Assembly: GCA_038143065.1 (NCBI GenBank)
Contig: JAYQLI010000033.1
Span: 37,906 to 101,905, forward strand
Direction of reading: 5' to 3'
Origin: Rhodospirillales bacterium
Lineage (GTDB): Bacteria > Pseudomonadota > Alphaproteobacteria > Bin95
DNA: 64,000 nt
Both the position numbers and the translations under genes were made by a program. The notes beneath the pieces are model-generated. The model did not search any database and had not been told where the DNA came from. It saw nothing but the letters and a program-made list of their open reading frames with translations. Shown here one piece after another: positions 22,123-40,011 of the stretch. Numbering within the stretch: the stretch's first letter is position 1; the number at the start of each line of letters is the position of its first letter.

Positions 22123-22692
22123 TGTCTAGCCCCATTTTTCAGTGCCACTTATTTTGTCGTTCTCTAATAAGGTTTCGGGGACGGGTGGTCTCATGCCCAA
22201 TGCGTGATGAGGTCTGATCTGGTTATATTATCTGAGCCAGGTATTGATTGCGACCTGAGCTTGTTTTGTGCTGTGGAACCATTCAGCATTAAGCATTTCT
22301 CGTCTAAGCGTTCCGTTAAAGCGTTCGTTATACCCGTTTTCCCATGGGCTGCCTGGATAGATTAGCAGTGGCTGGATGCCGACCCTTTTTAGCCAGTCCT
22401 GGAAGTGGAGCGCAACGAACTCAGGCCCGTTGTCAGAACGTATGAACTCAGGTTTGCCATGTTTCATCAACACTGGGTGCAATGCGTCGAGAACATCGTT
22501 CGCAGTCATCTTAGATCTTACCGCTACGCACAGCGCCTCACGGGTGTATTCATCCAGAACCGTCAGCATTTTGTAACTGCGCCCATTGCTGAGCTTATCG
22601 TGAACGAAGTCGATGGCCCAGATATGGCTGGGGTGTGTGGGCCGCAGCCTTATGACAGAGCTGTCCTGATGATAAAGCCGCCGCCGCTTCAT
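22123..22692 (-). mobile_element. IS3-family transposase (OrfB) remnant with one terminal inverted repeat
   Basis: [39 protein letters not shown]; terminal TGTCTAGCCCCATTTTTCAGTGCCAC. Confidence 0.9.
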
Positions 22693-22932
22693 CCCTACAC
22701 GATGGCGCTTATGTCGGCGATCCCGTCACGTGATCTTGACCGCCCAAGCACGCGTATACGGCTGCAAGGCGATGTCGCAAGCCCGATTAATGTGCCATCG
22801 GGCTGTGCCTTCCACAACCGCTGTCCGTTTGCCCAAGCGCGCTGCAGCAAAGAGCGCCCCGAGTTGGAGCAGATCAGAGACGGTCACTACGCCGCCTGCC
22901 ATTTTGCCGGGCGAATCGAACGCCCATTATAA
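22680..22932 (+). pseudogene. C-terminal fragment of a second peptide-ABC ATPase
   Basis: [14 protein letters not shown]...GCAFHNRCP...AACHF with no Walker motifs. Confidence 0.8.
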
Positions 22933-23310: not shown

Positions 23311-24286
23311 TCAACCGAGTTTAGCGATTATATTGCCTGCCTTTAGGTGCGTGTAACGGAAAAGCATCTTTGCGTCCTTATGACCTGATATCAGGGCCAC
23401 CTCGGGAATACTTAAGCCCATTTCAAAGAACCTACTTATGGCCTCATGTCGAAGGTCATGGAACCTTAGGTCACACAAGTCAGCACGTTTCCTGAGACGT
23501 TCCCACGCTAGTCTGAAGGCGTTAGCATTAACTGGAAATGGAGTAGGGGTGTCTTGTCGTGACCTTTGGTCTCTTAGGACATCAACTGCTTTTGAAGATA
23601 AAGGAACTTCTCTACTTGTTCCATTCTTGGTCAATGGTAGATAGGCAAGCTGTTGTTCCAGGCTAATGTTCTCCCAAGTCAGACCAAGGATTTCGCCCCG
23701 TCTCATGCCTGTTTCAATTGCAAAGACAATGATAGGCCATATGTGAGGGTTGAGAGTTAGATAGAGGCTTGCTCCAAACGTTCAAATTCACCTTTGTTGA
23801 GCCTTCGTTGCCTTGGCTTTGAGGTTGGAGGCATCTTGATAAAGTCGACAGGATTGGAAGACAGTGTCAAACCCCACTCGTGAGTGGCTATCTTCATGCA
23901 GTGTCTAATCAAGGTAAGGTCGTAATGCGTGGTTCTAGCTCCGTCAGGAAGCCTTCGGTCACGAAAGGCCGCGATGGCTGATGATGACAGCTTATCAAGG
24001 GTGAGGGTGCTTATAGGGTCGTTAATAAGGCGATTGAGGCGCCTTTCTTCGGTGTTTGCACCACGTTTACTCGGGGTAATTTCCTGCAGTAGCGTGATAG
24101 AAGTTCACCAAGCGTAACGCTGTCAGGTCTCAGTAAGCCGTAACTTCTGGCCTCAAGTTTGTTCTCTTGCTCAGCCACCCATTTGACAGCCAAGGACTTG
24201 GCTTTAAACGATCTTGTAATCGTGCCGATATCCTTGTGTCTAACGATTGCCTGCCATTTGCCGTTTCGCTTCCTGTATGTAGCCAC
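23311..24286 (-). CDS. tyrosine integrase of island 1 (frameshifted)
   Basis: ATYRKRNGKWQAIVR arm-binding N-terminus; TGMRRGE, TKNG, FHDLRHEA, ISGH, RY catalytic residues. Confidence 0.92.
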
Positions 24287-24567: not shown

Positions 24568-25105
24568 ATGCCTGTTTTGCGTGAAGATTCTGTGTTGATT
24601 ATGGATGGAGCTGTAAAGCTCTACAGGCGTGAGAGAAGCCGCAAATGGCAGGCAGCCTTCCAAATAGACGGCCAATACATTCGCATTTCAACTGGCAAGA
24701 GTGATTTGGACGAAGCCAAACAGGCTGCCTCTGACAGCTATTTGGAGTACAAGTTTCGACAAAAGAATGGCGTGCCAGTTGTTTCAAAGCGGTTCTCAGA
24801 TGTAGCTAAACTGTGCATCACAGAAATGTACAAGCAGCTGGAAAGTGGCGTTGGTAAGAGGTCTATCGCGATTATGTGATCGTGCTTGAGAAATATCTTA
24901 TTCCGTTCTTTGGCAAGATGCATGTAACAAGCATAACCTACGAAACACTCCAAAAGTTTGCACGCTGGCGCGAACAGCAGATGGGCAGGGAGCCCAAAGC
25001 ATCAACGCTGAACACACATAACTCTGCTCTTAACAGAGTGTTTGATGAGAGTGTTGCGCGCGGCTTTATGAACAAAACACAGGTGCCAACACTGATCAAC
25101 AAGGG
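24568..25105 (+). pseudogene. 5' half of a tyrosine integrase near-identical to 44572-45808
   Basis: Co-linear with 44572-45110 up to ...AACAAGGG, then similarity stops; catalytic domain absent. Confidence 0.92.
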
Positions 25106-25382
25106 CGGACTCAGTTTGGGCTAAAAATGTCAATTTTAAATACACTCAATTCATATATAATTTTAAGGGGAATACAACTCATGCGCGAGCTAATCCAGAC
25201 TTGGCCCGCAAGTTTGACGCGTGCACAGATTGACGCAAAAAAAAGTGTCTGCCTTGTTGCCATCAGAGTGTGAGGCAACACTCTTTTGCTAGACAAAATG
25301 GACGAAATTCACGTCAGCACAATTCGCTGGTTATCGGACCAGTGGGTCTCGGACCTGCCATGGTCATATGTCAGAAGAGCCA

Positions 25383-29022: not shown

Positions 29023-30135
29023 CTATCTGGCACCGCCATATTGCCAGTAGGCAGCGCAGGCGCCTTCGGACGAAACCATCAAAGCCCCCAGCGGCATGTC
29101 AGGGGTGCACCTTTCCGAATTGTGGGCATGCAACGGGTTTGACGCGTCCTGTCATGACCTCTCCACAGGCGCACCCTTCTGGCTCTTTTTTAAGCTGTTT
29201 CGTTTTAACCCATAGCCGATGCAAATTTTTCTTCGGCGTCAAATTCCTGTATTTGGCTCGGACCCGTAAACCACTCGCATCTATCTCGCCAAGCCCACGC
29301 CACTCAAATGTAGGTCGTGGTTCAGGACGTCTTCAACAGAGGCGATGCTGATCATATTGCCATCGTCAGGCACGACCCGGGAATACTGGTTTTCAACTTC
29401 TGCACGCCCACTCGCCAATTGTCTTAGGACCGCGAGGATTGACTGCAGCAAGTCGAGCGGTTCAAAGCCGGCCACTACTATAGGTTTGTTGAAATCGCGG
29501 GCAATGAACTCATAGGGCTTTGTGCCAATGACCATCGAGACATGGCCCGGCCCCACAAAGCCGTCGATCATTGAAAGTGGATCTTCCAACAACGCCTTAA
29601 TCGGCGGCGGTACATAATGTGATTGCAGAATATGCTGAAATTTGTGAGCTCTTCACGAGCTGCCTGCTGAATGGCTATTGCCGTAGATGGCGTTGTCGTC
29701 TCAAACCCCAGCCCAAAGAAAACGACTTCTTTGTCGGGCTGACGACGGGCCAACTCCAGCGCGTCGAGAGGCGAATATACCATTCGCACATCAGCGCCAT
29801 CCGCCTTTGCTTGAAAAAGGGATTTTTTGTGCCCGGCACCCGCATCACATCGCCGAAGGTGGTCATGATAACATCGGGGCGTTCGGCGATTTCGACACAA
29901 TCATCTACACGGCTCATGGGCGTACACAGACTGGACAGCCGGGACCGTGGATGAATTCCAATCCGGGAGGGGTCAATTGTCGACCAAAAACGAAAGATGG
30001 CGTGGGTATGGCCGCCATACTTCCATGATGTGGATAGGCTTTTCGGCGGTGGCCCCTAATTCCTCAACACTCTCTCATAGCTGCCAGCAATGATCTGGCT
30101 GCCGATGGATCGCGAAATTCATCGACGAACTTCAT
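29023..30135 (-). CDS. hypD: hydrogenase formation protein HypD (frameshifted)
   Basis: [47 protein letters not shown]. Confidence 0.95.
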
Positions 30136-30421
30136 GTCTGACCTCCAAGGACCTTTCGCTTTCGAACATGGCCTCAAACTCTTCTTGCGCGTCACCCAAC
30201 GCGTGCAGGGTTTGCATGGTTTTTTCGGCTTCTTCCTCGTCGATAATGGCCATAGCGAAACCAACGTGGATCGGGACCCATTTATCAACGAGAGAGGCAA
30301 GACCTTCGCCAGAGACACAGGTGACATTTACCTTACGCTTTACGCCGGATACGTCCGCCAGCGCCAGATTGGCCTCAAAATCGGTTATCTCAACAATACG
30401 ACCAGGAATTCCAAGACACAT
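30119..30421 (-). CDS. hypC: hydrogenase chaperone HypC
   Basis: MCLGIPGRIVE N-terminus and HVGFAM. Confidence 0.95.
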   Translation of the reverse strand: MCLGIPGRIVEITDFEANLALADVSGVKRKVNVTCVSGEGLASLVDKWVPIHVGFAMAIIDEEEAEKTMQTLHALGDAQEEFEAMFESERSLEVRHEVRR

Positions 30422-30542
30422 ACCGTCCTCCAAATTGATAACAGCCCCCCAATTGGTCTTAGGCCAACCTCTACTTAACGAGACGACAATAGCATTGTGT
30501 CCCAAGGGAAAGGTCAACAGGCAACTATCAATCCGAATCTGT

Positions 30543-31544
30543 TCAGATCCTATGCGCGCAACGCCCAAGATCTCGGCGAATTTCATCCTCAGGCAAGTTG
30601 ATCCCGATGAAAACCAGAAAGCTTTTATCTGGTGCTCCGGGCAAGGGGTTCGATGGAGCATATATCGTGAACGATATTGATTAATTGTGGCAGCGGCTCG
30701 TCTGCAAAACACAGGATCCCCTTTACCCTTAGCAAATCTTCGGAATGTCGCATGATCCAGAACGAGAGGATGTCGCGAAACACATCATGATTTAGGGGCG
30801 TGTCAATTTCGATTGAAAAGGACGATATGCCATGGGTGTGATCATGGTCGTGGTCATGGTTGTGGTCATGGTTGTTGGTGTGAAGATGTTCATGGTCGCG
30901 TGAAGATGGTATGGATGGCGTTTTGTCCAGTGGCAGGAACATGGTATCGATCTCGGCCTCCGCGCCCATCACCACAATCTCGGCCAACGGATTTCTAGTC
31001 GCGAGGGTCGTGTAAATCTCGTTCACCTGTTCATTGGTTTCGAGTTCTGATTTGCTGACGACGATCCGGTCTGCCAGCGCAATCTGCTCCGCGGCCTCAA
31101 CGAAACGGACTACCTGATTGCGAATGGCTGGCGCCGCCGCAACACAGATGGTTTGCACCACCTTGATGTCTGATTTCAGGCGCAAGTCACGCGCGACAGT
31201 GCGCAGGATACTACCGGGATCGGCAAGGCCAGAGGTCTCTACGATACACCGCTCTATGCTATCTGTGTCGCGGCGTGTAATGAGTTCAACAAGGGCGGCG
31301 GCGAGGTCATCTTGGACCTCACAACAGACACAGCCATTCGGCAGACTAAGCATTTGCGTACCACCGGACATTGTTCCCAGAATCGCCCCGTCAACATCAA
31401 CATCCCCAAACTCGTTTACGAGCACAGCCGTTCCCGCACCAGCTGGAGATTTGAGATATTTATTGAGGAGAGTTGTTTTTGCCTGCACCGGAGAAAACCA
31501 GTAAGCAGGGTCATCGGAAACATATTGTTTTCTGATTTCAGCAT
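30543..31544 (-). CDS. CobW/COG0523 G3E-family metallochaperone GTPase with His-rich insert
   Basis: Walker A (frameshifted GFLGAGKT), VNEFG, GCVCC, ETSG, DHEHLHTNNHDHNHDHDHDHTH, LRVKG; upstream of and co-oriented with hypCD. Confidence 0.9.
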
Positions 31545-31715
31545 GCTCGTTTTTGAACTCTTATCTGATGAATCGTAAGGCTTTAAAAAATTTGCATTGA
31601 CATTATTTCGTTATTATATGCGCTATGGTGGGGCTTTATTATCTCTCAGAGATACTCGCAATGCTCCACATCGTTAATTTATTCACGCTTAAATGTCCAC
31701 CCAAGGAGAAGAAAA

Positions 31716-32506
31716 ATGAAAATTGCAACTGTCGGAAAAGGCGGGTCTGGCAAGACAACAATCGCTGGCACATTGACTAGGATCTTTGCAGATGACGGCC
31801 GAAAGATGCTTGCCATTGACGGTGACCCCAACCCGAATTTAGCACTCACTCTTGGCATGTCTCGCGACAAATCAGACAACATTACCTACATCCCGGCTTC
31901 AGTTATGAAGCGTGGTGGAAGAGGTGGATGGTGTGGTCCAGATGGTGCCGGCGATCCCGCGCAGAAGAGATTATCGAAAAATATGCTGCGTCAGCTGCTG
32001 ATAATGTGGACCTCATCGTGATGGGGCAACCGGGACATGGTACAGCTGGGTCGGGCTGCATGTGCGCATCGCACAGGGCGGTACGCGGCCTTGTTGCTGA
32101 ACTAACGGATTTTGGCGAGCATACGGTGACCGATATGGAAGCTGGTCTGGAACATCTTAAACGTGGTACCGCGCGCCATGTTGACATGATGCTTATCGTT
32201 GCGGAACCCTATTACCGTTCACTTGAAGCGGGGATGCGTACCGTCGCGCTGGCCAAGGAACTGGGGATAGAACACATCAAGGTTGTAGCAAACAAAGTCC
32301 GTAATAACGAGGACATGGAAGCCATTCAGACCTTCTGCGATCGCCACGAAATGGAAATCATCGGCACAGTTCCTCTTGGACGAAGATATGGTTATGCAGA
32401 GCGACAGGAATTGGCGCCTTTTGATTTTGCGCCCGACTCCTCTGGTGTTTCTTCAATTCGCAAGATCGCGCAGGCCATCGATGAACTTGCCAAACAGCCA
32501 AGTTAA
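31716..32506 (+). CDS. cooC: CooC/AcsF-type nickel-insertion ATPase (frameshifted)
   Basis: GKGGSGKT deviant Walker A, IDGDPNPNL, GCMC (CxC Ni site), DMEAGLEHL, VANKVR. Confidence 0.88.
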
Positions 32507-32914
32507 TGAATATCGGTGACCTGGCAAAGAAACTCTCAGTTTCGACTAAGACTTTGCGGCATTATGAAAAAATAGGCATCCTTCCACAGGCTAACCGCAG
32601 CGATAATGGCTACCGTACATTTTCACGGGGCCGCGGTAGGTCAAGCTCGCTTTATTGTCATGCTGAGACGTCTGGAATTGTCGCTGGAAGAAATACGCCA
32701 ACTTCTTGAGGGTAATCCAGACAGTCTTCGAAAAAACCTGATTAGCATTTTAGATGAAAAGCGCAGAGCCGCCATGGTTGAAGTGGCCGTGTTGCAGGGA
32801 AAAATCGAAGATTTAAATACACGCTCAACCAATCTTGCTACAATGCACAGTGCGATGGGTGGAAGGTGCATATGCCCTTTATTTGGTGAGAACTGTTCAT
32901 GTGACGGAGAATAA
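32506..32914 (+). CDS. MerR family regulator with C-terminal CxC-x6-CxC motif (frameshifted)
   Basis: MNIGDLAKKLSVSTKTLRHYEKIGIL...NGYR; tail CICPLFGENCSCDGE; start overlaps the cooC stop. Confidence 0.88.
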
Positions 32915-32975
32915 GGTCTAGTTTTTGATTATGCATGTTTTGTAAAAAATATTTTAAAAAAATATGAATAATGTG

Positions 32976-33007
32976 TTGACCTTTACCCGAGGGCAATCTG
33001 CCATTGT
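32976..33007 (+). promoter_or_regulatory. MerR-type long-spacer promoter/operator of the hydrogenase operon
   Basis: TTGACC-20 bp-CATTGT with imperfect dyad TTACCC-GA-GGGCAA in the spacer. Confidence 0.65.
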
Positions 33008-33069
33008 TTTGGTGTTTCTACAAACTATCAAGCTATAGTTAAACGCGATCGTATGATGGACATAGCTCA

Positions 33070-34344
33070 ATGGGGGATAAAATGGGTGAAAAAGTTGCAC
33101 GCTTAAAAGCAGAAGTTCCGACAAAAGTTAGCTATCTGCCTAGATTTGGATTGGATGAGGGTCCCGTAACCGAAGTTCATGCTTTCTGGCTGGCTGGTCT
33201 TAGTTGCGACGGTTGTTCCATTGCAGCAGTGGGAGCACAAAATCCGACAGTTGAACAATTGATAAGTGGATCAATTCCCGGCTACCCAAGGTCATTCTTC
33301 ACCACCCGGTATTGTCTGTCACGGTCGGCCATAAGTTTATGGAGGCATATCACGAAGCCAAGAATGGGACGCTTGGTGCACCATATGTTGTCATTCAGGA
33401 AGGGTCAGTCGCTGACGAGGAGATCGCCGGGGGAATTCGGCGGGTACTGGTCTGCTATGGGTGTCACGGTTGATGAGGATGGGACCCAAACTCCAATACC
33501 GACCGCACACTGGCTGCGCGATCTTGCGCCGGGGGCCGCGGCTGTCATAGCTGTTGGAACCTGTGCTACGTGGGGCGGTGTTCCTGCGGCGGCTGGCAAT
33601 CTTACAAATGCCATGTCGGTCATGGATTATCTTGGCAAGGAGTATCTGTCGACCCTCGGTCTGCCGCCGGTGAACATCCCAGGATGCGCCCCGCTCGGTG
33701 ACAACATCACTGAAACGATAACATCAGTTTTGATGTTCCTTGCCGGTTTTGGACCATTGCCTGAGTTCGACGAACTCGGCAGGCCAGCTTGGATGTTCCA
33801 GTCGACTGTGCACCGCGGATGTGTGCGGGCCGGTAATTATGAGGAAGGCAAATTCGCCGACGAGTACGGCCAAAAAGAGTGTCTTGTTGAACTTGGTTGC
33901 TGGGGACCGGTTGTACAATGCAACATGGTATCACGGGGGCCATTGGTCATAATGGGGGTGTATGAACACCGGCGGCATTTGCATCGGTTGCACCATGCCG
34001 GGCTTTCCTGATACATTGCGCCATTTTATAAGCGCCCGCCAGGCACAATGGTGTCTTCAAACATCTCGCAGCACGGGATCGTTCGTTTCCTACTTGCGGA
34101 AATTTACGCAGGACAACCAAAACCTGACAAGTCATTGGAAGAAGACGAGCGAGATTCCCGTCTGGTTGGGCGAATGTTGACGGCCGCCGCGGGTTTGGAA
34201 AGAAGGCGGTCAGCTTCTTCTATGAGAAGTTGAAGAGATCTGGAACGGAATTTACCCTGGCTCACGGCGTCAGCAGGAGCTTCAGAATCTGCTTCGCGGT
34301 ACCTAAATAAAGGCACCACGGAATTCAAGATTGCGGCGGAATAG
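33070..34344 (+). CDS. hylS: [NiFe]-hydrogenase small subunit, group 1l-like (no Tat signal), frameshifted
   Basis: WLAGLSCDGCS, GTCATWGG, NIPGCAP, HRGC...CLVELGCWGPVVQC, GGICIGCT. Confidence 0.9.
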
Positions 34345-34353
34345 GGGGCTGAC

Positions 34354-34658
34354 ATGACTCTTTGGGCGATTGGTTATTTAATAGGTGTAACTGTGGTCCT
34401 CGTCGTTGCATTGCTGCTGATCGGCATCCTACTGCAAAGCGCGGCGCATTCATCGACTGGCTACAGCGGCATCGGCAATTGTGGCCGACATCGACAGCAA
34501 CACCCGCTCCCGTATGGATGCTTGCTGCGACCAATGATGTTGCGAAGAGCCTGCTTGGCGGCGCGGAGGCTGTCCCGAACAGAACGCGATGGCCATCGTC
34601 AACGCTGTCGGCAGAGAGTGGGGATCAAGAACAGATGCAGGAAGAGGAGGTAGTGTAA
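34354..34658 (+). CDS. single-pass membrane protein TM1 (HylTM-like), frameshifted
   Basis: MTLWAIGYLIGVTVVLVVALLLIGILL followed by an amphipathic helix; TAATG overlap with the next gene. Confidence 0.75.
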
Positions 34659-34984
34659 TGGATTTGATTCTTGGAACTGACCCTATCGCAAGCTGGTGGC
34701 TGGCTGTTGCCGTTGTCGCCGTAGTTACGCTTGTTGTTGCAATTTTGTTGGCCCTCGTGATCCGCACTGCCTCGGCAATCAATGACGAAGTTGCCACTGT
34801 TTGGGCTAACGGTCAGAGGGTGGCGAACAACACCATCCATATCGCGGCGCTTTATCAGACCCGTGATTACGTCAAAGGTATCCTTGGACACGCTGGACAC
34901 ATACTGAAACACAGTCAGGCTATTCGCGATCACGCAACGGATTCTTCAAGCCACTCACAGTCTATTTTGCAGAAGGTGAATTGA
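34658..34984 (+). CDS. single-pass membrane protein TM2 (HylTM-like)
   Basis: WWLAVAVVAVVTLVVAILLALVI followed by a helical, His-containing tail. Confidence 0.8.
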   Translation: MDLILGTDPIASWWLAVAVVAVVTLVVAILLALVIRTASAINDEVATVWANGQRVANNTIHIAALYQTRDYVKGILGHAGHILKHSQAIRDHATDSSSHSQSILQKVN

Positions 34985-34985
34985 C

Positions 34986-35280
34986 ATGATTACCATCCTT
35001 ACATTCCTTACATGTCTGGCATCGCTGGCGTTGCTGGTTGTGGTCGCTATCGGTCTGATGCGTATCAACGCAGTGTTGGAGAGCATCGGAGGAACTGGCG
35101 AGCTACCTTGCCAAACTGCGTCTTGGCTTGCGCGCTATCGAGAGAGAAACATCGCATTTGCCGGCCGCTGCCCCGACCCTGAATACAGATTTAGAGGCAA
35201 TTGGCAATGGCTTGACCGCCGTAGATGCAACACTTGGCGAGGTCCATGCAGCCCTTGTGGCACAGGAGGGCCGGTCATGA
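34986..35280 (+). CDS. single-pass membrane protein TM3 (HylTM-like), frameshifted
   Basis: MITILTFLTCLASLALLVVVAIGL...YLAKLRLGLRAIERETSHL; ATGA overlap. Confidence 0.75.
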
Positions 35281-35572
35281 GCACATTAGCTTTGACGATC
35301 TGGATCACTACTCTCGTTGTCGTTGTTGTCGCTGTTGTGCCGCTTGCCTTATCGTTGCTTGCGCGCGCGCTTCGCAATGCGAGATCGATTGAGGTTACCT
35401 TTCTGACATGCTTGACGCAGGCGTCAAGATCGTTGGCCACACAGAGGCAGTGACCGCGCTAGATCAAACGCTATCAGCTGCTAGAGGACTTCAGGCTGTG
35501 GCACCCGCTATCGAGGAGAAAACCGGCGTTGTCGCAGATATTATTTCAAAACGGGCCGAGGGGAATGCGTGA
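35277..35572 (+). CDS. single-pass membrane protein TM4 (HylTM-like), frameshifted
   Basis: MSTLALTIWITTLVVVVVAVVPLALSLL followed by a helix; TGATG overlap. Confidence 0.75.
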
Positions 35573-35847
35573 TGATTACAATTCTAGCTTTTGCCACGTT
35601 GGCCGTCGTTCTGATCATCGTGCTGGTGGTCGCCTATCACCTGATCGGCATTTTTGTATCTTTAAAGCGTGGTGCTAACCACCTCGAAGCCCTGGCGGGC
35701 GGTCTGATTGCCATACGCGATAATACGATACCGCTGAACGGACGGGTGGATGAAATTAATGCTGGATTGACCGGCTTAGTGGAGCCACTCCTGGCAACAA
35801 ATAGCAACCTAGGCACGATTGTGAAGATCACTAGTGGCAGGTCGTAA
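35572..35847 (+). CDS. single-pass membrane protein TM5 (HylTM-like)
   Basis: MITILAFATLAVVLIIVLVVAYHLIGI...LAGGLIAIRDNTIPL. Confidence 0.8.
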   Translation: MITILAFATLAVVLIIVLVVAYHLIGIFVSLKRGANHLEALAGGLIAIRDNTIPLNGRVDEINAGLTGLVEPLLATNSNLGTIVKITSGRS

Positions 35848-35876
35848 ACCTAAATCAAAAGAAGAGGAATCTTTTA

Positions 35877-37746
35877 ATGTGCTTTGAAAATCTCCCAATC
35901 GAATTTGATAAGGATGGGAATGCATTTCTTAAGGACGGTATTCGCAATCCCTATGAATATCAGACGCGTACGATTGAAGAGCGCAATGCCAAGCTGAAAG
36001 AAGTTGCCGTAAAAAACGGACAGCTTGCTGATGTGGATTTCGACCCAGTTACCCGAGTTGCGGGCGCTCTGGCATTCCACTCAACGGTTGACCTCAAGAA
36101 AGGCACCGTCCTTGAGACTAATGCGATGGCTACATTGTTCCGTGGCTATGAGGTGATCCTGCGCGGTCGCGATCCGCGTGACGCTGCTTTTATCTCATCG
36201 CGCGCTTGTGGTGTTTGCGGTGGGGTACATTCGTACATCGGCGCTGTCAATTGAGATGGCTCTCGACATTAAGCCGCCTCCAATGGGCATTGTGGTTCGC
36301 AACCTGTTGCTTTCTTGTGAATATCTCTATGACAACCCGCTTCACCTCTTTGTGTTGTCAGGACCAGATTTTCTGAATCGCTGGTGAAGATGACCAATCC
36401 GGAAATCTGGGAAAAGGCTAAAAGCGCGGCTGCACCGGGGTATGAGACGCACGGTTATAAAAAGATTTCTGAGATTATGAGTGATCTTAATCCGCTTACC
36501 GGAAAGCTGTATCTTGAAGCTCTGAACATGACCCGCGTCGCGCGTGAAGTATATGTACTTTTGGGTGGTAAGTATCCACACCCTGAGACAATCATTCCGG
36601 GCGGTGTTACAACCACCATAACGACAACGACTTTCAACGAATTCTATCTGAAGATGTCGCAGTTTTTTGATTATGCGAAGAAATGTGTGGCCATCTGGGA
36701 TGACGTATTCGACTTCTTCTACGAGTGCGATCCGCGCTACAAAGGATGTTGGCAGAATTCCCGCGACGATGGTCGATTTTGGTCAGTGGGACCATGAGGA
36801 CCATTACGATGCGAGCTATGAGAACTGCAATGAGTGGGGTGAGAAGCGGTGGTCGACACCCGGCGTTGTCATCGACGGCAAGCTGGTCACCACTCGCCTG
36901 ACGGACATCAATGTTGGTTTGGAAGAGTTTGTCGAGCATTCGTACTATGAGAAATGGGAGGATTATCCCTTCAAAACAGACCCACTCGGCAATCCGCTGT
37001 CTCCGAACCACCCATGGAATAAAACGACCATTCCACGGCCAGGTGCGCAGAACTGGAAAGAGCGTTACAGTTGGTCTACCACACCAACTTGGGACCGACA
37101 GACGTTCGAAGCTGGCGCTTATGCAAGGATGTATATTTCGGCTCTTGCTCAGAAAATTCCGCATAGTGAGTATTTCGAGTCCACTGGCCACAGCATGAAG
37201 TTGAACATCCCGAAGGCTAACCTGCCGGAAGCCAACCTCGAATGGAATGTTCCGGATGTCTGGAACGCGTTTGAGCGTAACCGGGCGCGGGCCTATGCGG
37301 TTGCGTTCCAACCTTCTTGTGACCATGGAAAACCTTACTCGTGCTCTTGATCTTCAAAAGAAGGGTGAAACTCAGGTTGCGACCCCATTTGAAATTCCAA
37401 AGAAAGGCCATTCCATAGGTGTTGGTTTCTGGGGGCTGGACGGGGCTTCCTCAGTCATCACTGCGAGATTAAAGATGGGCTGCTGGCTAACTATCAGATA
37501 GTGACGCCCTCGACGGTGAATGCCTGTCCGGCAACTCCGTGGGGGGCGGTCCGTATGAAGGCTGTGTTGAATACACCGATTATCGAAACAACGTTCAAGG
37601 ACGAGAGCGACTTCCAGGGTATTGATATCCTTCGGGCGTTGCGCTCATTTGATCCTTGTATGCCTTGCACCACGCACGTGATGGTTGAGGGATCTGACCG
37701 GGTTGTTACCCGTGAGGTGACCACATGTGCCTGTGGTATTGATTGA
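35877..37746 (+). CDS. hylL: [NiFe]-hydrogenase large subunit, group 1l-like, frameshifted
   Basis: MCFENLPIEFD, FDPVTRVAG, FRGYE, L1 SRACGVCGGVH, L2 RSFDPCMPCTTH, then a tail ending CACGID. Confidence 0.93.
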
Positions 37747-37754
37747 CACGGCAC

Positions 37755-38402
37755 ATGGACGCGCCAACGGTAATGGTGGGGATCGTAGGGTACTCAGCGG
37801 TGGTGAAAGCTATCCGCTGGGACCTCACTTGCTGGAAGAGCTCGAAGCGATCTTTGGTGAAGACCCAAATGTGATACTTGAGAATTTCACATGGAGCCCT
37901 GTACATATCGTACAACGTTTGCAGGGCGGAGAAATGGAGCGACCCGACCGGGTTATTCTGGTCGGTCTCGCAGCAGACACCAATAAGCCCGGCACAGTAT
38001 CCGCGCATCGCTGGATTGGTGGATCACAGCCGGAAGTCATGGTGCAGGAACGTATTTACGAGGCTGTCACAGGCATCGTCGATCTAGAAAACACGTTGAT
38101 GATCGGCAGCTATTTTAAGGTGTGGCCAACGGAATGCCTGACAGTGGAGGTCGATCTTGCCGCTGACACGTTCGGGCGTTTGGTCATGGCTGAGAATGGT
38201 GGCAGGGACAGCGAAAGAATTGGAGCGCGAACTTGGATATTCGCCCATTGCTGTCAGGAAACAGATGGTGGAGGCAGTCAGGTCGCTGGTATTGAACGGA
38301 ATTGCGGCGAAGGATCCGGTTCTAAAAGACAAGGACGCCGATATGCTGTCGCCAATTCGTTCCTTTTCAGAAACGCATGTAGCTAACTTGTTAGGAGACT
38401 AG
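37755..38402 (+). CDS. divergent hydrogenase maturation protease-like protein, frameshifted
   Basis: ENFTWSPVHIVQRL...DRVILVG...ERIYEAVTGIVDLENTL...WP.ECLTVEV resembles the HybD/HupD fold; directly follows the large subunit. Confidence 0.55.
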
Positions 38403-38764: not shown

Positions 38765-38778
38765 GGACAAGTGAGTCG

Positions 38779-39502
38779 ATGCAGATTGAAGACACGGAGC
38801 AGTCGTTGGTCGGTTACCGCACCAACGAGGAATGGCAGGATTTGCTGGCGCAGGCTGCAACGATGCTGGGCGCGCTGGATGAAATCGAAGACGAGGCAAC
38901 CCGCCAAAAGGTATTTTCCGCGATGGCGTGAAATTGATTCTGTCCATCGTGAAGCATTACATCGTCTGGTCCGACTTTTCAAAGAAGGCGTTCTTGAACA
39001 GGTTGTGACCGACCCGGCAATCAATTCTTTAATGGGAATGTATGACCTTCTTCCGCCTGAAACGCCCGGCTGTGCCAAGGTCTGGGATTTTATGGGGAAC
39101 GATGATGACGCTGACTCTGTGAGCCAGGAACAGGCGGTATCGGCAAGCGAGGTTACCATCCTGCCCCACTGGTCACCCGCACCGCCAAATGCGGTCGTCG
39201 AGGAAGGGTCTGCATATATATGTGAGATGGAAGAGGCGCGCGTCCTGCTTGTGCGTGTCGATGGCAATGATTATGCGCTGGAAGCAGAATGCCCAATTCA
39301 TAAAAAGTCTTTTGCCGACGGCCGGCTCGACAAGATGTTGTGGCACTGCGGTGAGGGGCCGGGATGTAGCTATGATATTCGCAACGGCAAGCGGTTGGGC
39401 GGCGGACAGGGTCTTAATTGTTTCCCGGTACGTGTTGAATCCGATGGTCGACGCATGATCGGCTTCGGAGTTCCGTTTGAACCCAAACTACCAGCTTTTT
39501 AA
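38779..39502 (+). CDS. hydrogenase accessory protein: helical N-domain plus degenerate Rieske-like domain
   Basis: HREALHRLVRL...DPAINSLMGMYDLLP; C-terminal ECPIH...CGEGPGCSYDIRNG...LNCFPVRVE. Confidence 0.65.
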
Positions 39503-39505
39503 AAA

Positions 39506-40011
39506 ATGGCGATCTTGGTTTCAGGTGTTGGTAATGAATTGAAAGGAGATGACGCCTTCCGGAATTCGTGCTGTGCAATGTCTGGATGATGACCCAAGGA
39601 AGCCTGAAAAGCTGCGTAACCCAACAAACAGGTATCGGTGGCATACATCTGGTTCAGGAATTGATGCGTGGGTATGAACTACTCATTCTGTTTGATGCAT
39701 TTGATCGTGGCGGCTCGCCAGGTGATCTGTGGTTGCTGGAACCTGATCTACCAAAGGCAGAAGAGATGACCCACGGTGAGCGCCGCGACTATTTCGCGGA
39801 TGTGCATTACGCGACACCCGTAAGGGCGTTGACACTGGCGCAGTCGGTGGGAGCCTTGCCCCCGCTGGTCCGCATAATCGGCTGTCAGCCTCAACAACTG
39901 GACACATTTGATACCGAGATGCACCAAACGGTGGCTGCTGCAGTGCCAAAAGCAGTTGATATGGCAATCGAAGTCATAGTCCAACTCGAGAAAAGGCAGA
40001 ATAAGGGGTAA
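39506..40011 (+). CDS. hydrogenase maturation endopeptidase (HupD/HybD family), frameshifted
   Basis: VSGVGNELKGDD, GIGGIHLVQEL, ILFDA, DVHY, IIGCQP. Confidence 0.88.

Follow-up and report, generated by a model that had tools for sequence, protein, structure and literature searches.

Gene organization of the hydrogenase locus

The DNA analyzed here (the window) is a stretch of 64,000 nucleotides from a Rhodospirillales bacterium (assembly GCA_038143065.1, contig JAYQLI010000033.1, positions 37,906 to 101,905). It carries a [NiFe]-hydrogenase cluster, hylS-hylTM1-5-hylL, preceded by a merR gene whose product is considered here as the candidate transcriptional switch of the cluster. The features at the core of the locus are as follows (window coordinates; aa, amino acids; ORF, open reading frame):

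31716–32506, plus strand: cooC-like P-loop ATPase gene (Pfam CbiA/AAA_31), with the CxC motif GSGCMCASH
32506–32914, plus strand: merR, 135 aa if read through (Pfam MerR 5.9e-16 and MerR-DNA-bind 5.2e-07, on two pieces)
32976–32981, plus strand: −35 hexamer TTGACC, 61 bp after the merR stop, invariant in 21/21 aligned sites
32982–33001, plus strand: spacer TTTACCCGAGGGCAATCTGC, 20 bp
32982–32996, plus strand: predicted operator dyad TTTACC-CGA-GGGCAA (family consensus TTGCCC-N3-GGGCAA)
33002–33007, plus strand: −10-like hexamer CATTGT, 20 bp from the −35
33070–34341, plus strand: hylS, small subunit (Pfam Oxidored_q6 and NiFe_hyd_SSU_C), frameshifted as sequenced
34345–35850, plus strand: hylTM1-5 region, five short transmembrane ORFs, with the conserved pieces o34589, o34986 and o35569
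35877–37743, plus strand: hylL, large subunit (Pfam NiFeSe_Hases on four fragments)

As a preliminary description of this DNA had proposed, the cooC-like gene and merR are coupled: the stop codon TAA of the former overlaps the ATG of the latter by one base (32504–32508). The same description had placed TTGACC, a 20-bp spacer and CATTGT about 60 bp past merR and ahead of the small-subunit gene; all of these letters are present, and the hylS ATG at 33070 follows directly after this promoter. The dyad that it had read as TTACCC-GA-GGGCAA is the same element, but the register common to the family lies one base over, TTnnCC-N3-GGnCAA, at positions 7–21 after the first T of the −35.

The hydrogenase was classified by way of an intact syntenic locus, that of Pseudaestuariivita atlantica 22II-S11-z3 (L005). 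There, five ORFs of 91–110 aa, each with one hydrophobic helix, separate hylS (419 aa) from hylL (626 aa). The layout HylS, HylTM1-5, HylL is that of group 1l in the accessible parts of the sources (Ortiz et al. preprint; PMC13554262). L005 thus shows the group 1l gene order, with five short transmembrane ORFs between the subunit genes, and homologous pieces of these ORFs occur in the window. The closest solved relative of the L005 HylL protein was the group 1h enzyme 5AA5 (2.3e-150), all others scoring 3e-52 or weaker. The hydrogenase is therefore classified here as a predicted group 1l [NiFe] enzyme, a placement that rests on gene order and the nearest solved neighbor and not on a reference tree.

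A conserved dyad in the over-long hylS promoter

The preliminary description had offered conservation of the dyad across homologous loci as a check on its proposal. The upstream regions of 20 related genome loci and of the window were aligned without gaps on TTGACC, L005 being dropped as equal to L004. The results showed that the block TTGACCTTnnCCnnnGGnCAA is near-invariant in the 20 loci, with flanks that cannot be aligned. Among the 21 sites, 14 of positions 1–21 carried 2.0 bits, and the 19 positions before and 29 after carried about 0.1–0.3 bits; outside the block only position 23 (a C conserved in part) and, weakly, the −10 stood out. The MerR proteins of the aligned loci were only 39–59% identical (tblastn) to P0004, an intact 135-aa MerR protein.

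Spacing and symmetry were then evaluated on larger sets of sites. The best −10-like hexamer lay 20 bp from the −35 in 25 of 51 sites, 19 bp in 23, 21 bp in two and 17 bp in one; a 19–20 bp spacer holding the predicted operator dyad, the hallmark of MerR-type promoters, was thus found in 48/51 sites. When the dyad was centred 14 bases from the T that opens the −35, at least five of six inner pairs were complementary in 25/35 merR-linked sites versus 38/7000 shuffled regions. At four loci (L074, L077, L093 and L126) both arms change together, from CCC/GGG to CCG/CGG (TTGCCG...CGGCAA), as predicted for a two-fold symmetric binder.

The 21-base pattern had one exact match in the window and six matches with at most two mismatches, against 0.18 expected from 100 shuffles. 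The 4.63-Mb assembly as a whole (G000) contained a single exact match, as did each of five other whole genomes; every one of these matches preceded hylS. Dyad-only patterns matched G000 10 times, versus about 9 estimated by hand from their degeneracy, and gave no sign of further targets. Matches with two mismatches lie at window positions 1100, 14314, 28543 and 42241, two of them within coding sequence (hypE and an ATP-binding cassette (ABC) ATPase gene). A consensus promoter scan found no plus-strand promoter with a 16–18 bp spacer in the merR–hylS gap, a result that is uninformative for a 20-bp spacer.

Co-distribution of merR and the operator

Of the 21 genome loci that gave a full-length match, 20 have merR immediately before hylS; the record of the 21st ends too early to show the arrangement. 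HylS sampling was positive only for G000 among 401 genomes of its phylum, and for 3/401 genomes of the family of another genome, G044. Such samples are too sparse for distribution statistics, and a metagenome scan by HylS alignment was used instead. It yielded 80 loci, 56 of them with at least 700 nt upstream, in which an operator was called at three or fewer mismatches. An operator was present in all 27 loci with an adjacent merR. Of the 29 without one, 25 had no operator and four had an operator-like site. One of these four, L072, carries an IS110 transposase gene between a C-terminal merR fragment and the operator; another, L063, has merR 2.6 kb upstream. At the other two, L075 (1264–1284, two mismatches) and L097 (3416–3436, three mismatches), the sites stand before hylS with no merR within reach; these may be chance matches, or they may answer to a regulator gene located elsewhere.

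This comparative evidence (dyad, −35 and 19–20 bp spacing) strongly supports the original proposal that the adjacent four-Cys MerR controls the hydrogenase operon through a long-spacer promoter.

Three observations accompany these counts. In L072 (56–3420) and L070, an IS110-family insertion stands ahead of an intact operator and hylS, a natural uncoupling of regulator from target. One Paracoccaceae metagenome-assembled genome, G744, holds two complete merR-hyl clusters (L004 and L024) whose HylS proteins are 70% identical and whose operator variants differ, GGGCAA versus GGTAAA. The merR-less loci carry upstream hypF, hypD-hypE(-hypC), a PadR gene or an HxlR-like gene, the PadR-family and HxlR-like genes lying upstream of hylS at L100 (1787–2317) and L116 (2483–3250); different lineages seem to have recruited different regulators.

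The regulator is a MerR protein with four C-terminal cysteines

The N-terminal winged helix-turn-helix of MerR-type proteins was detected in residues 1–41 (PF00376, 5.9e-16; PF13411, 1e-08), and the dimerization helix and C-terminal effector region by PF09278 (5.2e-07) and an AlphaFold2 model. The C-terminal CxC-x6-CxC tail reported in the preliminary description is present (CICPLFGENCSC), the protein ending in GGRCICPLFGENCSCDGE before the stop at 32914. A protein search with the C-terminal piece returned 15 proteins, the full-length ones of 133–135 aa. When one genome per species was scanned, full-length matches turned up at the 21 loci, which belong to Alpha- and Gammaproteobacteria of marine and soil origin, including Paracoccaceae, Granulosicoccaceae, Rhizobiaceae, Hyphomicrobiaceae and Devosia.

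The CxC-x6-CxC tail was found in 21/21 genome-locus proteins and was complete in 25/28 metagenome proteins. One of the latter read CxxC-x8-CxC, as do the tails of P0012 and P0013, and two were inspected only as far as the first Cys. In an alignment of 45 sequences, C121, C130 and C132 were invariant and C123 was at least 90% conserved. Where C123 is lost (P0012, P0013 and L058), a Cys is present three residues before C121; four thiolates are therefore always kept. The marine relatives P0006–P0011 read CxxCxC-x6-CxC, with an extra Cys that is absent from the window, P0004 and all 21 genome-locus proteins. An earlier statement that the Cys pattern is unlike that of SoxR thus holds for the window tail, but these close relatives come nearer to it, and the 12-residue span of the outer cysteines equals that of SoxR.

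Scores against the named NCBIfam models all stayed far below the cut-offs: CadR-PbrR, 51–78 bits (151.45); ZntR, 52–65 bits (167.95); CueR (TIGR02044), 51–73 bits (147.4); and SoxR (TIGR01950), 24–31 bits (116.9), with the L005 protein unlisted for SoxR. The two-Cys Cu(I) loop of CueR and the CxxCxC-x5-C motif of SoxR were both lacking. In five genomes the orthologue scored 174–199 bits and the next MerR paralogue, CueR-like or CadR-like, at most 67 bits. By these comparisons the regulator constitutes a separate family that reaches the cut-off of no named NCBIfam model.

The AlphaFold2 model, built on the 45-sequence alignment, had a mean predicted local distance difference test score (pLDDT) of 89.8, with 69 over residues 111–120 and 81 over residues 121–130. 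It consists of the winged helix-turn-helix, a helix at 71–112, a loop, and a short helix at 123–126 flanked by the two CxC pairs. Foldseek placed DNA-bound CadR first (6JGX, with Cd) and CueR next, both with probability 1.00, followed by PbrR and MerR, and SoxR at rank 50.

Neighboring genes and further operator-like sites

Around the core of the locus lie the following features:

25.6–29.0 kb, plus strand: hypF and hypE, in pieces as sequenced
about 29.0–30.4 kb, minus strand: hypD and hypC
start about 30134, minus strand: hypD, overlapped by hypC
30122–30421, minus strand: hypC (Pfam HupF_HypC 3e-20), N-terminus MCLGIPGRIVEI (MCLGIPG...)
30486–30517, minus strand: second MerR-type promoter, TTGACC-TTTCCCTTGGGACACAATGC-TATTGT, 20-bp spacer, one mismatch to the 21-base pattern
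30547–31488, minus strand: gene for a cobW-like (COG0523-type) GTPase (Pfam cobW 1.1e-31 and CobW_C)
37721–38383 and 38765–39499, plus strand: two conserved ORFs after hylL
39553–40008, plus strand: hydrogenase maturation endopeptidase gene (Pfam HycI 1.4e-11)
40005 to about 42850, plus strand: genes for a FecB-like binding protein, a FecCD permease and an ABC ATPase, directly after the endopeptidase gene

The 21-base match of the second promoter (30517–30497, minus strand) lies about 30 bp past the cobW stop and about 65 bp upstream of hypC. In L058 and L059 an equivalent promoter precedes hypC (MCLGIPG...), and their MerR proteins match the HylS-linked family queries of L005 at 64%, with tails matching P0013 and P0006, respectively. 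In the sub-clade of the window the predicted regulon would thus comprise the structural hyl operon plus hypCD. Operator-like sites upstream of cooC-merR were found only in L018 (5064–5084) and L073 (914–934), which suggests autoregulation in some lineages; apart from these two sites, the cobW–cooC intergenic regions of the loci shared no common motif.

The cobW-like gene is divergent from cooC and syntenic in 15/21 genome loci; in the window an indel near 30625 breaks its frame, and its C-terminus runs to the stop near 30547. The neighboring cooC-like product has the P-loop and the conserved CxC metal motif of CooC-type proteins, and the intact CooC homologue of L005 matches CooC1 (3KJE, 8.1e-34), its gCmC aligned with the qCyC of CooC1. 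The role ascribed to this motif rests on the available portion of PMC3792862.

The ORFs at 37721–38383 and 38765–39499 matched no Pfam family, the first being conserved at 40–73% identity in related loci. For the FecB-like protein the closest solved relative was an unnamed periplasmic binding protein, and the FecBCD-type system is possibly an importer of a metal chelate, perhaps of nickel. The NiuBDE system of Helicobacter is a nickel-chelate importer of FecBCD type. At L008 a binding-protein gene 75% identical to the FecB-like gene of the window is also linked to the cluster.

Proposed regulatory mechanism

Taken together, the comparisons led us to propose that the gene at 32506–32914 encodes a dedicated MerR-family switch for the group 1l [NiFe]-hydrogenase cluster, a reading to which we assign a probability of roughly 0.8. 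A MerR dimer would sit on the dyad TTGCCC-N3-GGGCAA, which fills the 19–20 bp spacer from TTGACC to a weak −10 before hylS, and in its ligand-free form would hold the hylS promoter shut. Ligand captured at the C-terminal CxC-x6-CxC would cause the spacer to be untwisted, such that sigma-70 polymerase could start the hylS-hylTM1-5-hylL operon. In the sub-clade of the window the second, similar promoter would drive hypC-hypD, and merR itself would be transcribed with cooC from a separate upstream promoter. Binding of the dyad, activation by DNA distortion and gating by a ligand are inferred by analogy with CueR and MerR.

Several points weigh against this proposal. The two operator arms of the window match each other at only 4/6 positions, the left arm TTTACC being weaker than the right arm GGGCAA; L059 independently carries the same unusual left arm (TTGACCTTTACCCAAGGGCAA). 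At the anchored centre, 10/35 metagenome sites have fewer than five of six inner pairs; in L091, L094 and L095, where TTGACC itself serves as the half-site, the anchor is one hexamer off. merR and the operator are inherited together as neighbors, so their co-distribution alone cannot identify the binder, and about half of the sampled group 1l-like loci are without merR, which makes this switch one of several regulatory solutions. Transcription from cooC-merR may also continue into hylS, because the scan found no terminator between merR and hylS. Finally, the merR of the window is frameshifted as sequenced, and if the frameshift were real the switch would be dead in this organism.

Candidate ligands of the regulator

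Among possible ligands we rank Ni(II) first, as a tentative choice; an Fe-S cluster comes second, another metal or something else is rather unlikely, and a thiol-disulfide switch is the least likely. Ni(II) is favored by the position of merR between nickel-handling genes, by the CxC retained in the neighboring CooC-like protein, by the FecBCD-type importer genes after the endopeptidase gene, and by the closest relatives of the regulator being metal-ion sensors, with NimR as a precedent (PMC7055735, in its accessible part). Two CxC pairs in one chain could, by analogy with the site between two CooC subunits, form an all-thiolate, four-coordinate Ni(II) site. The regulator may then be a nickel-sufficiency sensor of a new kind, under which Hyl and the HypCD maturases would be made only with nickel available; we hold this view with well under even confidence.

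The same switch might instead carry a redox-active Fe-S cluster, forming a second SoxR-like class that would tie H2 oxidation to oxidants, O2 or the redox state, a possibility that we regard as doubtful yet serious. It would fit the CxxCxC-x6-CxC of P0006–P0011, the 12-residue outer span shared with Escherichia coli SoxR, and the four thiolates kept even where the second Cys is lost (P0012, P0013 and L058); CxC pairs are Fe-S ligands in ferredoxin:thioredoxin reductase and ISCA2, according to the text available of PMC10134865. However, SoxR was the weakest of the named relatives (24–31 bits, versus 51–78 bits for CadR, CueR and ZntR) and stood only at Foldseek rank 50, behind CadR, CueR, PbrR and MerR, and the SoxR-like extra Cys is missing from the window, P0004 and all 21 genome-locus proteins.

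A reversible disulfide without any cofactor is an unlikely alternative form of the switch. The four conserved cysteines do form two CxC pairs, and the lower pLDDT around them in the model would fit a flexible redox loop; yet exactly four cysteines at fixed spacing, compensated when lost, are more typical of a metal or cluster site, and the nearest relatives sense metal ions.

Assembly quality and origin of the locus

The preliminary description had overlooked a break in merR. As sequenced it is not a single open frame: residues 1–40 lie in one frame (32506–32625) and residues 39–135 in the next (32621–32911), joined by a single-base indel at about 32621–32627. cooC (near 31917), hylS, hylL, hypF and hypE are likewise in pieces, and the window HylS matches that of L005 (7.6e-146) with two in-frame stops. 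Most genes of the window appear to be broken by such indel errors. Contig C33, to which the window belongs, has 0.23 of its length in ORFs of at least 300 aa, versus 0.52 for the 2.86-Mb main contig, and many small contigs of the assembly are poorer still in long ORFs.

Short-read contigs from three DNA runs of three studies were near-identical to the window across 31500–38000, with 4–7 substitutions per 2–5 kb piece. In the 12 of 35 indel rows that were inspected, the three runs departed from the window by matching indels, those at 31917, 35392, 36368 and 36741 among them; all three omit one base at 31917, inside the cooC break. No listed substitution of any of the three runs falls between 32393 and 33317, the stretch that includes merR and the operator. 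Because three short-read runs show consistent indels against the window, its frameshifts are probably assembly errors. Over residues 1–40 the intact P0004, which represents a cluster of 15 sequences, matches the window protein at 100% identity, and over residues 39–135 at 93%. Contigs from a run of an RNA library showed 0–2 differences over parts of cooC, hylS, the transmembrane ORFs and hylL; DNA carry-over is possible for these contigs, which hold no transcription-start information.

Window positions 12–42 kb are atypical in tetranucleotide usage (r = 0.01–0.59 to the main contig, versus 0.83–0.92 for the flanks). Integrase genes lie at 22231–22725 (minus strand), 23314–23781 (minus strand) and 24858–25121 (plus strand), and transposase genes also lie beside the hydrogenase cluster. 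From its composition and neighbors, the cluster looks to be on a horizontally acquired island. When 1.7 kb of the locus were compared with the DNA of 40 relatives of G000, the search returned only a 34-base chance match, so at the DNA level the locus is not common to the genus or family. A GC-rich block (0.61–0.64) occupies 14–20 kb of the window.

These data also bear on the idea that the cluster is a decaying island whose frameshifts in merR, cooC, hylS and hylL are real, with no regulation left in this genome. None of the long genes of the cluster is intact in the sequence at hand, and the tetranucleotide usage and adjoining integrase genes would suit such an origin. We nevertheless consider decay improbable, given the concurrence of the three DNA runs on the indels, the general shortage of long ORFs in low-coverage contigs of this assembly, the intact 135-aa MerR in public data, and the near-identical pieces of cooC, hylS, hylTM and hylL in the RNA library.

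Comparison with known MerR systems and hydrogenase regulators

The closest counterpart of the predicted operator is the copA promoter of E. coli, PcopA, which in the K-12 reference genome reads TTGACCTTCCCCTTGCTGGAAGGTTTAACCT, that is, TTGACC-TTCCCCTTGCTGGAAGGTT-TAACCT. The hyl promoter of L077, TTGACC-TTGCCGTTGCGGCAAGGTC-AATACT, has the same 19-bp spacing. PcopA and the hyl family share the −35 followed by TT (TTGACCTT) and the dyad centre at position 14 from the first T, and the outer arms ACCTT/AAGGT recur in many family members, including L077 and L126; the window belongs to a marine sub-clade in which the right outer arm has degenerated to tCC. The inner half-site differs, being TTGCCC/GGGCAA in the hyl family versus TTCC/GGAA in PcopA, and L127 has a CueR-like inner half-site, TTCCCC...GGAAGG. 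The proteins are likewise similar to CueR in fold and length, CueR-like proteins being next-best paralogues in the same genomes. A conserved Thr ends the long helix in the hyl family, whereas CueR has its first loop Cys, C112, there; the four cysteines of the hyl family lie further on, and the target is a hydrogenase where that of CueR is an efflux pump.

That the conserved block is the site of another factor or a mere promoter core, the adjacent MerR regulating something else, is very improbable: linkage alone could hold merR and the block together, and operator-like sites occur without a neighboring merR at four loci and ahead of cooC at L018 and L073, but a dyad centred in a 19–20 bp spacer, overlapping the −35 and in register with PcopA, is a MerR-type signature, the pattern occurs once per genome, at hylS, 25/29 merR-less loci have no operator, and an odd-spaced 15-bp dyad misfits the FNR/FixK box, which is 14 bp.

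CadR/PbrR and ZntR gave the best NCBIfam match, the best PDB sequence matches among metal sensors and the top Foldseek match. These sensors draw a Cys ligand from the start of the partner's dimerization helix, whereas the hyl family has no Cys there (HMMER alignment with CadR) and bears all four cysteines in one C-terminal segment. In E. coli SoxR the four cysteines span 12 residues just past the dimerization helix, as do the outer cysteines of the hyl family, but the motif is CxxCxC-x5-C rather than CxC-x6-CxC. SoxR acts at the long-spacer soxS promoter.

Control of [NiFe]-hydrogenase operons at the level of transcription is known from HoxA/HupR acting with sigma-54, the H2-sensing HoxBC-HoxJ system, FNR, ArcA and NikR, which belong to other protein families and follow other promoter logic. 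To our knowledge, none of them is a MerR-type spacer-distortion switch. Lenz and Friedrich (1998), cited in PMC10305171, reportedly covered known hydrogenase regulation. NimR of Haemophilus influenzae is the only Ni-responsive MerR protein named in the accessible part of the review PMC7055735, where its metal site is given as uncharacterized. Compared by that description and not by sequence, it resembles the hyl regulator in tying a MerR protein to the nickel supply of a nickel enzyme, and differs in controlling a nickel importer.

Implications for group 1l hydrogenases

The spacer switch of MerR-type regulators is a textbook mechanism; what is new here is a regulator family outside the named equivalogs, its sensor motif and its target. 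The literature covered, which included group 1l papers but not the gene neighborhoods in the Ortiz supplements (Fig. S5 and Table S7), where such a gene may appear without remark, contained no link between a MerR protein and a hydrogenase. The string "MerR" in PMC13056359 proved to be part of the author name Merrouch and not a regulator.

Among hydrogenase families, group 1l prevailed in the Antarctic soils that were studied, and it is widespread in seawater, according to the accessible parts of the Ortiz preprint and PMC10305171. For this widespread trace-hydrogen enzyme, the MerR protein is probably an undescribed on/off switch, because many marine and soil bacteria have retained its predicted site within an over-long promoter. 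In the available portion of their paper, Lappan et al. describe two marine isolates that carry group 1l genes and did not consume H2, and ask about special conditions; a ligand-gated activator is a candidate answer to such silent isolates. If the ligand is nickel, the sensor would explain the lack of H2 uptake by marine carriers in standard broth, and with it a MerR-type protein would for the first time be seen to activate a hydrogenase, and a MerR scaffold to gate an energy enzyme, rather than efflux, by metal sufficiency.

For the MerR field, the family adds a sensor module, CxC-x6-CxC, that is absent from the named subfamilies, and a class of target beyond detoxification. For group 1l enzymes, a dedicated regulator with a defined 21-bp operator provides a handle on how they are switched on: a reporter could find the inducing signal, through which metatranscriptome patterns could be interpreted, and silent hydrogenases might be woken in culture.

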